From: Pseudogymnoascus verrucosus
Taxonomy: Eukaryota
Reading direction: 5' to 3' (one strand)
Assembly (NCBI GenBank): GCA_001662655.1
Contig: KV460214.1
Length of the DNA stretch: 64,000 bases
A program made the translations under genes and the position numbers. Shown piece after piece: positions 7,206 to 23,236 of this stretch (positions within the stretch are counted from its first letter, which is position 1; each line of letters begins with the position of its first letter). The notes beneath the pieces are model-generated. The model did no database searches and was not told the DNA's origin. It was given only the letters and a program-made list of their open reading frames with translations.

Positions 7206-8579
7206 TCACGCCGACGGCGTCTTCTTATCCTCCTCCGCCTTCTTCTTCGCCTCCTCCTCCGCCTGCTCCTTATTAATCTTCGACGTCAGCTCCATCTCCT
7301 GCTTCTTCCTCTCCTCCTCCTTCTTCTTCGCCTCCTCCTCCTCCGTCGGTATCCCAGCCTCCTTCTTCTTCCTCTCCTCCTCCAACACCCTCTCCGCCTC
7401 TGCTTGGGCTAGCTTCTTCTTCTCCTCAATCTTAATCCTCGACTTCTCCGCCTCCGCCTTCTCAAACGCCAGCGAAGCCGCCTGATCAATCGCGCCCTCA
7501 CGATTATCCCCCTCGCACCGCTCCCGCTCCAGCTTCATGGGCAGGATAATCGCGATCTCAGGACAGTACTTGAGGATCCTCGCGCGCTGATCGCTGTTCT
7601 TCCACACGCCCGGGGGCAGTTTTCCAGCGCCGTCGCGCAGATGGTATCCCATAGGCGCCTCGTTGTAGACGTCCTCGACACTGAAGTGCTTGGCGTCGAG
7701 GCCGCTGGCGACTTTGAAGTCGGGCATGGCGGAGATGCGCTTGCCGAACCACTCGTCCTCGGGTTCGGAGTCCCCGTCGCGGGTTTGGAACTCGAGGACG
7801 CGCTTGATGGCTGCGACGCGGCGGATGGAGAGCCCGCCGTTGCCGGCGAAGGTGTCGGTGTTGCTTCTGCGCGGGTGTGTTAATGTTGTGCTACCAACGG
7901 GTATCATGGGGGGTAAGTAGATAAGGACGAACCTTGGTGCGGCGGCCCAGTCATAGCGGAGCCAGTCGTTCAGGCTGTCTTTGGAGTTGGAGCACATAAT
8001 GCTATCGCTCTCGTATTTCATAATCCATTCCACCCCCGGTATCAGATCTGTGTAGAAGTGAGAGTCCGTGAGCATGCGCCACACATGCTCCTTATTCTTG
8101 ATCTCCCACGGCTTTGGCACGACCATGAGGTCGAGCTTGCCGGCCGCCTGCTGATGCTTAATGGCGAAGCTGCGGCCGACGGCAGCGACGCTCTTGTTGG
8201 TGCCGATAAAGAGGAAGCGCCATTCTGGCGGGACGACGGATATCATATGCAGGATCTGTGGTACGAGATGCGGCTTCGCGCGCCCCTCGATCAGCAGCGC
8301 AAGCTTTGTAGGGTCGTACGCCGTGAGCGGGTCGCTTTCGGGGTGGAATTCCACCTTTATCGATGGGAGCTTCTGGCGTGTGCGTGTGAGCTGCTCTTGC
8401 AGCGTCTCTTGATAACGCGGGAAGAGGCCGGCGATTGTCCATCTGCAGAGGGAAAGTTAGAAAGGGCTCGGCCAGGATGAAGGAGGAGGGCAAACGTACA
8501 TTGCTACTAGACCTGCGAAGAGGATGACCTTTGTGCGATTCAGGGCGAAGAAGCCGCTGGTCTTGGTGGATAACGGCAT
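7206..8579 (-). CDS. DUF5672-type putative glycosyltransferase, type II membrane, with Glu/Lys-rich C-terminal tail (2 introns)
   Basis: ATG at 8579 gives MPLSTKTSGFFALNRTKVILFAGLV with a TM anchor. Motifs KLALLIE, VVPPEWRF, YESDSIMC, YDWAAAP, GNGGLSIR and EDEWF are shared with the paralog at 13.7 kb. Confidence 0.75.
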
Positions 8580-9255
8580 GGTGTCCCGCGATGCCAATCG
8601 CAGTTAAATGTAGGGCCTCAGAAGCCCATCCGTTATCGTAACCAGCAGTCTGCGCGTTTTCGAGGGCGTTCAATGGGAGTTCGCAGAGGCTCTGTATTCT
8701 ATTTCGCAAGCAGTTGAAGCTGAGGATGTCGACAACTGTTCATGAACTCCAAGAATCCTACAGTACGTAGTGTCTTGGAATCCCTGAAGACGTTATCCAC
8801 TGAGCTGAATCCATAGTGGCTCCTTTTTATCGCTGGCGTACAAGTACATACAAGTGTCAACGGTGATAATGGACGCTGCTTTAAGGGTCCATTGCCTGCA
8901 AAAATAGCTTGGGGCCAGTCAGTGGTAGTGAACTTCTTAGTGACTTGAAAAAAAGGGCTAAAACGTCAACAGAATTAGAGGCCGCCAGGGGTAGAGAAGT
9001 AGCAGTACTTGAGAATACAGAGTATAGTGGCCGCGTACCAAACATATAGCACCAAATTTACTCCAGTATTCAAAGAATCGCCCCAGCACTCTAAGTCAAA
9101 CGGAATCAAATCCAAGTACCGGTACGAAGGCCACGACGACGCTAGAATACTCGTAATCCTTCCAGTATCACGTGAGCAGCGTGTTAGGTGGCTCGAAGTC
9201 GCGGCACTGATCGTAGGAAGGGCGATAAGTCAATTGAATTGCTGGATTGTTTAGT

Positions 9256-9330
9256 TATATCCTTATATATCCCTATATATTCCTACATATCCTTATATAT
9301 CCTTATATACTCTTACATATTCTTATTTAT
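9256..9330. repeat. Degenerate 10-bp minisatellite (ccttatatat-like units)
   Basis: Read directly: tatatccttatatatccctatatattcctacatatccttatatatccttatatac... Confidence 0.7.
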
Positions 9331-9733
9331 TATTTATTATTCTATATTCTTATTTTTCTATTCGTTCCATACTCAGTTGCTGTAAATAACCCGATCTAAA
9401 CCCTTTCCGTACGAGGCTACTACACGTACCAGGAGGCGGGATCGCTTACCTGTACTGTATTGGTACCTTCATATTTCTTGGCTCCAATTTCTTATCCGTA
9501 CACGGAGAGAGAGAGAGTCTATTGCCTCTTCTAGACAACTTCACAGAGATTCTGCCGTCCTTTTCGTTTCTTTGCGCTGTGCTGCTTGTACAATAATTCT
9601 TGCTGCGAGTTGCCACCACGGTCGCTACAAATCGATGCGTTCCTGAACCAGTCAACCCATCGTCTTACTGCCGTACGTTCGGCCCTCGATCAAACATCAA
9701 CCGCCGCATTCGAGTTGAACCCCAAGAGAAACC

Positions 9734-20774: not shown

Positions 20775-20837
20775 ACACCACACACACACACACATACACA
20801 TAAACACACATAAACACATAAACACCACACACACACC
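20775..20837. repeat. (CA)n-rich microsatellite
   Basis: cacaccacacacacacacacacatacacataaacacaca... in the intergenic region between the transporter and the dehydratase. Confidence 0.7.
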
Positions 20838-21595
20838 AACCACCGCCACCACCGTTGCTAAAAGATAATAAATAGTAAATAAATAGTAAAAGCTACATGC
20901 ATCTCCTCGTAATTTATGCCCTGACCCCTTGTACCTATCTATCTATCTATCTCTTCTCGCCGTCGCCCCTCCCTCCCTCCCACCTTCTTTCTCCCTTACC
21001 CACCTCCACTCCCACCTCCTCCTACCCTCTCCCATCTCTCTCCCACAAACCCACCACTACCACTATCCAACCTCCCCCTAACCTCCCCCTAACCTCCTCC
21101 TCCTCTCCCTCCCACCTTCCCCCTCACCCCATGCTACCATCACATCCCATCCCACCACCATCCACCATCCACCATCCCATCCCACACCCCCCAACCCCGT
21201 ACCCGAAATTTAAAAAATAGCTCTGCATTTACCACAATTAGCACGATTACCACAATTAGCACCATCAGAGGCGAGTACCGTATTAAAAAAGCTTCCACCC
21301 ACTCCAATTGCTCAAAATCACCCCTCCACCTCCACCCCCCCCCCAACACCAACCCACTTTCAGCCACTCACACCACAATAAACCCCCCTCTTCACCGTTC
21401 TGTGTGCGTCTATTCGCAATTCCCACCAAAACCCACATTTCACACCACTTCCTGTCCTTGCTCCCTCCTTCCCACTACTCTACTCTCCCTCTCCTCCTTT
21501 CTACTCCTACATCTGGCCCGCATATATATACACAATATCCTCACTTCTCATCTACGACTCGACTCTCCTTGTACATCTCCGCGCCAGCTATCATC

Positions 21596-23236
21596 ATGCC
21601 TAGCCCACCTACATACTCCAGGACTGCCTCCTGTAAGTTTTGTTTTCTAACTTCTCCCCCCCCTCCCCCAAAAATCACCAGATTGTTTACCCCCCTCTCC
21701 TTCTTTTGCCCCCCCCACCGCCCACGAAACTATTTCGTGCGAATTGCATGTGCGCGGTGTGTCGTTACAAATATTAGAGTGCTGACCTGACCGTTGCTGC
21801 AGCTGCCGCGGGCGAGAACCCTTTCCTTGAGGACCTCCCCGTCTGGAAGAGAGCGCCTGTTCTCATCGGTTCGACCAAGTTCGAGCCGCTCCCAGATGTC
21901 AAGAACATCATGATCACTGGTGGCGCTGGCTTCATGTAAGATAAAACCCACAATCTCTTTTATTTTCAAACACACGGGCCCCCCTACCCCTCCCCTCTCC
22001 TCCCCCACCAAAAACATGAGAAAGAAGAAGAAGAAGAAGAAGAAGAAGAAGACGAACCTCAAGCTAATATTTCACTTTCCTCAGCGCATGCTGGTTGGTA
22101 CGACACTTGACCCTCACATACCCCGACGCATACAACATTGTCTCCTTCGACAAGCTCGACTACTGCGCATCGCTCAACAACACCCGCGCCCTCAATGACA
22201 AGAGGAACTTCTCCTTCTACCAGGGCGACATCACCAACCCCTCCGAGGTGATGGACTGCCTCGAGCGCCACAACATCGACACCATCTTCCACTTCGCCGC
22301 GCAGTCGCACGTCGACCTGAGCTTCGGTAACTCGTACGGGTTCACCCACACCAACGTCTACGGCACCCACGTGCTGCTCGAGTCCGCCAAGAAGGTCGGC
22401 ATCAAGCGCTTCATCCACATCTCCACCGATGAGGTCTACGGTGAGGTTGAGGACGAGGATGATGACCTCCTCGAGACCAGCATCCTCGCCCCCACCAACC
22501 CCTACGCCGCCTCCAAGGCCGCCGCAGAGATGTTGGTGCACTCTTACCAGAAGAGCTTCAAGCTCCCCGTCATCATCGTCCGCAGCAACAACGTCTACGG
22601 CCCCCACCAGTTCCCCGAGAGTACGTTCCCCCCGCAATCCCCTCCTCGCACATCCCACTAACACCCCTCCCAGAGGTCATCCCCAAATTCACCTGCCTCC
22701 TGAACCGCGGCGAGCCCGTCGTCCTCCACGGCGACGGTTCCCCAACCCGCCGCTACCTCTTCGCCGGCGACGCCGCCGACGCCTTTGACACCATCCTCCA
22801 CAAGGGCCACATCGGGCAGATCTACAACGTCGGCTCCTACGACGAGATCTCCAACCTGTCCCTCTGCTCCAAGCTCCTCGCCTACCTCGAGATCCCGCAC
22901 AAGACCCAGGAGGAGCTGCACACCTGGATCAAGCACACTCACGACCGTCCCTTCAACGATCGCCGCTACGCCGTCGATGGGACCAAGCTGCGTAACCTCG
23001 GATGGGACCAGAAGACCTCGTTCGAGAAGGGAGTTGGGATTACTGTGCAGTGGTACAAGGCTTTCGGTGAGGAGTGGTGGGGTGATATCACTAAGGTCCT
23101 TACTCCGTTCCCGGAGGTCGAGAACAAGAAGGTCATTGCTGCGAGGGATGTGGTGGTGGATAACATTGAGGGAGATATGGTCGTTGATAAGAACGATGAT
23201 ATGACCCTCAAGCAGGTCAACGGCGCAAAGGCCTAG
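21596..23236 (+). CDS. UDP-glucose 4,6-dehydratase (RmlB/RHM N-domain type SDR), first step of UDP-rhamnose synthesis (4 exons)
   Basis: Motifs TGGAGFI (across an intron), DKLDYCA, HFAAQSHVD.SF, the HISTDEVYG dehydratase motif, YAASK, RSNNVYGP and DRPFNDRRY. Confidence 0.93.
22022..22051. repeat. (AAG)10 microsatellite in an intron of the dehydratase gene
   Basis: Read directly from the sequence. Confidence 0.9.

Follow-up and report, generated by a model that had tools for sequence, protein, structure and literature searches.

Surface glycans that carry rhamnose are found in Sporothrix, Scedosporium, Botrytis, Verticillium, and other fungi, and in Sporothrix they affect immune recognition (PMC13429783). 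In Botrytis cinerea, deletion of either bcdh (Bcin03g03060) or bcer (Bcin06g02380) abolishes rhamnose (PMC7695001). A 2017 survey stated that no fungal rhamnosyltransferase had been characterised, and it detected no homologue of RgpF in 24 proteomes (PMC5872309). Later fungal candidates are GT-B proteins (GT, glycosyltransferase), including the proposed rhamnosyltransferases RHT1 and RHT2 of Sporothrix (PMC12295706), whose silencing lowers rhamnose (PMC13429783; PMC12295706). Among transporters, plant URGTs carry UDP-rhamnose and UDP-galactose (PMC7752924). Gene clustering has been informative before: the pairing of ugmA with ugtA revealed the transporter for UDP-galactofuranose (UDP-Galf; PMC4630932). 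Here we describe five adjoining genes, g1 to g5, in a 64,000-nucleotide stretch (the window) of Pseudogymnoascus verrucosus contig KV460214.1. The host is a Leotiomycete, and the nearest named relatives of its proteins are from Pseudogymnoascus. Our best reading, with a probability of roughly 0.6, is that the five genes encode a Golgi rhamnosylation module. The locus yields a candidate transporter, along with two functionally uncharacterised protein families, as candidates for the rhamnose pathway that can be tested directly and cheaply, and one of these families, DUF5672, gains a predicted GT-A fold.

Five glycan-related genes in one locus

Five intact spliced genes fill positions 7206-23236 of the window exactly, from stop codon to stop codon. 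The preliminary description had placed five glycan-related genes between PGS1-like and DUF2015 flanks, and Pfam, homology, and fold models bear these identities out. (In the flanks, Pfam finds PLD in the PGS1-like gene, and DUF2015.) The last gene, g5 (21596..23236, + strand; 422 amino acids (aa); exons 21596-21632, 21803-21935, 22085-22620, and 22674-23236), is by homology an orthologue of the characterised fungal UDP-glucose 4,6-dehydratase. It is 80% identical over 391 aa to members of the AEH41993/U46DH_PYROR cluster (the Pyricularia oryzae enzyme), and it matches GDP_Man_Dehyd/Epimerase in Pfam. For P0241, which is 96% identical to g5, the best NCBIfam model is dTDP-glucose 4,6-dehydratase (dTDP, deoxythymidine diphosphate). 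The sequence holds STDEVYG and YAASK; TDE and YxxxK are catalytic motifs of such dehydratases. We found a single copy of g5 in the genome. Its Botrytis orthologue is bcdh, the known rhamnose gene, and is needed for rhamnose glycans, which agrees with the earlier claim that the dehydratase opens UDP-rhamnose synthesis. B. cinerea dh mutants lose rhamnose and yet look wild-type (PMC7695001), so the glycan may not be needed under standard assay conditions.

The claim that the module makes the donor has to be narrowed, since it does not do so alone. The 3,5-epimerase/4-reductase (E = 3.3e-47 to 4qqr) is on another contig, C55, among genes that look like housekeeping genes by eye. The cluster starts donor synthesis without finishing it, so the locus is not self-contained. 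(An RmlD-like gene on C22 was set aside as the second donor enzyme, as it is the C55 gene that matches plant NRS/ER.)

Judged by its sequence, g4 (16818..18092, - strand; 374 aa; exons 18092-17853, 17758-16938, and 16881-16818) is a nucleotide-sugar transporter of the TPT type. Databases name it SLC35E3-like, and most of its 120 nearest relatives carry PF03151. Its second exon matches the TPT family in Pfam with E = 2.6e-5 (24.2 bits, below the cut-off of 30). It has multiple hydrophobic segments, compared with about ten helices expected of a TPT transporter, and its GHLKT resembles the KT motif of NST-KT transporters. A search of PDB sequences with a g4 relative gave no match, and no close paralogue of g4 was found in the genome. 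Its family and its conserved pairing with g5 (see below) make g4 a quite probable UDP-rhamnose transporter, by the same logic that applied to UgtA. g4 is not UgtA itself: the UDP-Galf transporter lies beside the mutase on C73 and shares just 28% with g4 across 113 residues. (That pair, a UDP-galactopyranose mutase and a TPT transporter at C73:51200-56700, is also head-to-head.) Nor is the P. oryzae orthologue of g4 NST1 or NST2, as its N-terminus differs from those in Table S3 of PMC10013753.

The genes g1 (7206..8579, - strand; 416 aa; exons 8579-8500, 8442-7933, and 7866-7206) and g3 (13748..15217, + strand; 449 aa; exons 13748-13908 and 14029-15217) encode DUF5672 proteins, as described earlier; both match the Pfam family above its cut-off. 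They are 34% identical, and g1 has its own clade in our tree (a quick version). The g3 model is of moderate quality, with a mean pLDDT (predicted local distance difference test) of 61 and 65-91 in the core blocks. Foldseek matched it to 299 chains at E <= 0.001, with GT-A enzymes at the top, and the best VIA match was also a GT-A enzyme (Z = 11.5, root-mean-square deviation (rmsd) 3.6, 193 residues aligned). By this model g3 has a GT-A glycosyltransferase fold, and g1 presumably shares it. The motif scheme of GT-A enzymes comprises DxD, a G-loop, xED, and a C-terminal His. Both proteins have GNGGLS and GYH; g3 has QTD at the DxD site and EDVW, while g1 has ESD, EDEW, and a charged tail. (The tail, at window 7206-7500, is a long helical stretch rich in Lys, Glu, and Ala.) Across 14 diverse DUF5672 paralogues, the G-loop NGG.S and ED.W are invariant and the His is nearly so; the DxD site is non-canonical in g3 and g1. 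A PDB sequence search with g3 gave no match, and in the literature searched the one paper that mentions DUF5672 is on an unrelated Streptococcus topic. One Pseudogymnoascus gene model, P0511, joins a copy of g3 to a second part that we take to be a Mnn1-type mannosyltransferase; it is probably a merged prediction of neighbours.

The third putative transferase, g2 (9734..11449, + strand; 524 aa; exons 9734-9814, 9890-10552, and 10619-11449), had been called RgpF-like. This stands as remote homology: the g2 family profile aligns to a true bacterial RgpF with 95.3% probability in HHalign (E = 2.3e-8, 185 columns). It does not stand as Pfam membership. PF05045 matches 30 of 83 g2 relatives weakly and just one above the cut-off, and Pfam finds no relevant family in the g2 exons or in P0361 (59% identical to g2). 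Profile comparison thus points to g2 as remotely related to the N-terminal domain of RgpF but outside the Pfam family. The model of P0361 (pLDDT 80.6) indicates a GT-A fold for the g2 family. Its top Foldseek matches are B3GNT2 and B3GalT5, and its best VIA match has Z = 13.1, rmsd 3.0, and 177 residues aligned, with same-fold nucleotidyltransferases tied among the matches. RgpF was not among the structural matches listed, which excludes nothing. A PDB sequence search with g2 gave two matches, both non-significant. Comparing the DUF5672 and g2-family profiles revealed no detectable homology (0.6%), and NCBIfam has no match for g1, g2, or g3. A long, charged helical insertion rich in Lys, Glu, and Ala (window 10860-11230) lies inside the g2 catalytic domain and is present in the closest relatives too. 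A second g2-like gene is on the same contig, about 58 kb downstream of g5 (C9:329479-329961), and a third is on C49. Large viral contigs also encode g2-family proteins (L186:7953-9236 and L187:8145-11270), and in one viral contig protein a g2-like domain is fused to the C-terminal half of RgpF and WbsX.

Each of g1, g2, and g3 has a single N-terminal hydrophobic segment (residues 16-34, 9-27, and 43-61) preceded by basic residues, which may be a signal anchor or a cleaved peptide.

The gene models appear sound. GT-AG borders are present at all 10 introns, the g3 model equals database protein P0001 letter for letter, and contigs bridge nine of the 10 predicted introns (the g3 intron was not seen among them). 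These contigs come from four runs of one study and are RNA by guess only, as no run is recorded as RNA. Their depth cannot rank the genes, and uncovered gaps were not taken as evidence. Open reading frames (ORFs) in the gaps lack coding-like GC content at third codon positions (at most 0.62, versus 0.74-0.84 in g1 to g5). g1 and g2 are head-to-head, as are g4 and g5, whose divergent 3.5-kb spacer (18093..21595) might hold a shared promoter. The g4-g5 spacers of six species have no shared promoter motif above 30 crude shuffles; in the g1-g3 spacers, the 7-mer ACCCCTG occurs in 10 of 12, exceeding all 30 crude shuffles. We estimate the chance of four glycan-synthesis neighbours at very roughly 5e-4 per genome, with gene numbers assumed, about 1.5% of genes taken to be in glycan synthesis, and g1 and g3 counted as one event. 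By eye, the rest of the window (1-7000 and 24300-64000) holds ordinary-looking genes, such as an ABC (ATP-binding cassette) transporter, PGS1, DUF2015, RPL28, malate dehydrogenase (MDH), a TRAPP subunit, GTPases, GST, and nitrilase.

Conservation of the gene order

We examined linkage by reading locus tags by eye and by using metagenome contigs. (The metagenome scan gave 63 loci, 47 of them distinct, and most are too short to show all five families. The g1 and g4 tallies leave out L085-L088 and L092-L094, which are outside the g3 clade. Also left out of the counts are L071, which has no cluster genes; short loci; and a record from Pseudogymnoascus that places g3 and g5 on a single contig, with accessions 82 apart.) Among Leotiomycetes, g3 lies no more than five locus tags away from g4 or g5 in 22 of 23 genomes (14 genera); examples are HYALB_00007029/30/31 and BCIN_03g03030/50/60. 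The exception is Cadophora malorum, with g5 on another contig. In Botrytis, bcdh itself lies near BCIN_03g03050 (g4, 75%) and BCIN_03g03030 (g3, 54%).

In Sordariomycetes, the g4-g5 pair and the g1-g3 pair are separate. The two genes of the first pair are within one to three tags or accessions of each other in all six genera with both visible (Sporothrix, Cercophora, Anthostomella, Pyricularia, Colletotrichum, and Coniochaeta 2T2.1); in C. pulveracea they are 11 tags apart. g4 and g5 are also linked in five of six long Leotiomycete-like metagenome loci. In the Sordariomycete-like metagenome loci, where g4 is not linked to g3, a shared conserved gene, which we take to be SEC12-like, often follows; its counterpart here is on C58. 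As for the second pair, g1 faces away from g3 in seven of the nine distinct g3-clade loci that extend 6.5 kb upstream, and it is also in six shorter g3-clade loci; by best match these include both classes. According to the quick tree, the g1 and g3 clades predate the split of Leotiomycetes and Sordariomycetes. Overall, the two pairs are conserved over two classes, and the union of five genes is mostly a Leotiomycete state. The preliminary description had treated the five as one unit: linkage held in 22 of 23 Leotiomycetes, but in Sordariomycetes the unit splits into two pairs, and g2 is often absent.

All five families occur together in one of the 47 distinct metagenome loci, L056, which also holds a third DUF5672 gene. 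A third DUF5672 clade is beside g3 in several Leotiomycete-like loci (L041:7165-7927, L046, L056:7428-7949, L067, and L038), which suggests a larger ancestral locus; the nearest copies here are on C12 and C60. In three loci of one lineage (L092-L094, 93-98% alike), the epimerase/reductase stands head-to-head with a DUF5672 gene that belongs to neither the g1 nor the g3 clade. After g5, four Leotiomycete-like loci have a class I S-adenosylmethionine methyltransferase (L041:17630-18598, L069:10305-11369, L096:6688-7863, and L097:6838-8060), possibly as background synteny or for glycan methylation; its best matches in this genome are on other contigs, at about 39%.

Outside fungi, we considered 80 bacterial DUF5672 loci with up to 8 kb on each side. 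Of the 25 scanned with Pfam, 21 carry a glycosyltransferase or a nucleoside diphosphate-sugar enzyme within the four closest ORFs. In three of the 80, a gene next to DUF5672 is RgpF or g2-like. In a metagenome-assembled genome of a spirochaete (L107:5202-8699), DUF5672 and a g2-family gene (30% to P0361) are head-to-head, as they are in this locus, and other glycosyltransferases lie alongside.

A proposed rhamnosylation module and its alternatives

In the mechanism we propose, g5 would convert cytosolic UDP-glucose to UDP-4-keto-6-deoxyglucose, as shown for its orthologues, and the unlinked C55 enzyme, given its strong homology, would complete UDP-L-rhamnose. g4 would take UDP-rhamnose into the lumen of the Golgi or endoplasmic reticulum, with uridine monophosphate leaving in exchange; this is suggested by its family and by its pairing with g5. 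The putative membrane-anchored GT-A proteins g2 and g1/g3 would build or cap a rhamnose-bearing glycan of the cell wall or of glycoproteins. (The transferase fold is predicted; the donor, acceptor, bond type, Golgi location, and single shared glycan are inferred.) By homology, g2 is the likeliest rhamnosyltransferase; the pair g1 and g3, which is conserved more widely, may attach either rhamnose or a sugar next to it in that glycan. At least one of the three probably transfers rhamnose; that all act on one glycan is an even bet. The observation of five such neighbours is confirmed, and its earlier interpretation as a module for donor synthesis, import, and transfer is partly supported; it now has a firmer footing than sequence reading gave it, although the cluster is incomplete and modular.

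Several points weigh against this mechanism. The activities in it are predicted. The top fold matches mix retaining and inverting enzymes, so stereochemistry is not fixed. The transferases here are GT-A by model and predicted to be type II, unlike the GT-B proteins RHT1 and RHT2. The epimerase/reductase is unlinked from the dehydratase both here and in B. cinerea. Within Leotiomycetes the synteny is partly background, because housekeeping neighbours also persist in three distinct loci (Sec61/MOD5 in L041, MDH in L069, and DUF2015-RPL28-MDH in L038). In all six named Sordariomycete genomes g3 is away from g4 and g5 (in two, roughly 110 genes separate them on one scaffold), and the metagenome loci agree: g4 is linked to g3 in nine of 11 Leotiomycete-like loci versus none of six Sordariomycete-like loci. 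g2 is in only four metagenome loci (L038, L049, L056, and L065), and L049 has g4, g2, and g3 without g5 within its 21 kb. Three further DUF5672 genes and two further g2-like genes are scattered in the genome, and the adjacency of g1 and g3 may stem from an old tandem duplication. Finally, none of the 80 bacterial DUF5672 loci has an RmlB-grade match (the best is 107 bits), so the family overall is not tied to rhamnose.

The separation in Sordariomycetes, the background synteny, the scattered paralogues, the lack of RmlB-grade neighbours in those bacterial loci, and the other published rhamnosyltransferase candidates would all fit two independent conserved pairs that came to adjoin in Leotiomycetes by chromosome history. 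In that case g4-g5 would supply UDP-rhamnose, while g1-g3 and g2 would transfer other sugars (mannose, galactose, or glucuronic acid) to unrelated glycans. But in the separate lineage L092-L094 a DUF5672 gene stands head-to-head with the second enzyme for rhamnose; g2 is related to RgpF and has stayed with g3 and g4 where L049 is rearranged; a DUF5672 gene and a g2-like gene are also head-to-head in the spirochaete glycan locus; and the core changes less often than the flanks. We consider this explanation, the main rival, rather unlikely. It is far less probable that the neighbourhood arose by chance and is functionally unlinked, g4 included. Fungal gene order keeps many unrelated neighbours, and co-regulation is only presumed; set against this are the adjacency of g4 and g5 over two classes, the ugmA-ugtA precedent, and the fact that all five genes are glycan-related. 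Equally improbable, or slightly more so, is that the locus handles another 6-deoxysugar, with the 4-keto intermediate reduced by a different reductase. The genome does have further SDR/RmlD-like genes, and neither here nor in Botrytis is the epimerase/reductase linked. But the one copy of g5 must feed an intact NRS/ER-type enzyme (the C55 match to 4qqr), and both Botrytis deletions abolish rhamnose (PMC7695001).

A wider version of the rhamnosylation reading is tentative, at somewhat less than even odds. It holds that DUF5672 and the fungal RgpF-like proteins would be two unrecognised GT-A families providing the principal Golgi rhamnosyltransferases in both Leotiomycetes and Sordariomycetes, with the g4 clade as the fungal UDP-rhamnose transporter. 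The ancestral locus would have had six genes (three DUF5672, one RgpF-like, the transporter, and the dehydratase), as in the intact L056. It would work much as a bacterial rhamnan locus does, but refitted to the secretory pathway, and the pairing of DUF5672 and RgpF-like proteins would be common to fungi and bacteria.

Comparison with known systems

The five-gene arrangement was not found in the literature searched, although the primary pathway papers and their supplements may mention the neighbours. From the fungal UDP-rhamnose pathway (bcdh/bcer in B. cinerea and UG4,6-Dh/U4k6dG-ER in P. oryzae), the locus has the dehydratase orthologue, g5, at 80-82%; the papers examined do not describe a neighbouring transporter or transferases. 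RHT1 and RHT2 of Sporothrix have likewise been proposed as fungal rhamnosyltransferases, for the glycans of glycolipids and glycoproteins. The published motifs of Rht1 appear to resemble those of Alg13, a subunit of the N-acetylglucosamine transferase for N-glycans; this apparent resemblance bears on how settled the rhamnosyltransferase question is. The plant URGT/UXT proteins (NST-KT clade) and P. oryzae NST1 and NST2 are, like g4, nucleotide-sugar transporters of the TPT family. The galactosaminogalactan cluster of Aspergillus is alike in having five genes for a surface glycan. It is synthase-dependent and works at the plasma membrane, without a Golgi transporter or a set of type II GT-A proteins.

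The closest fungal parallel to g4-g5 is ugmA/glfA with ugtA/glfB, in which a nucleotide-sugar enzyme is clustered with a TPT-family Golgi transporter across Pezizomycotina (PMC4630932). That cluster concerns another sugar and comprises just two genes; the pair described here is accompanied by two to four transferases in Leotiomycetes. The bacterial rhamnan loci (rgp/gac) are alike in joining supply, transport, and transferases, and the g2 family is remotely homologous to the N-terminal domain of their RgpF. Unlike bacterial RgpF (PF05045), g2 is below the Pfam cut-off, has one domain, and has a predicted membrane anchor. The bacterial loci use dTDP-rhamnose and ABC export; here the donor would be UDP-rhamnose, with import into the lumen proposed instead.

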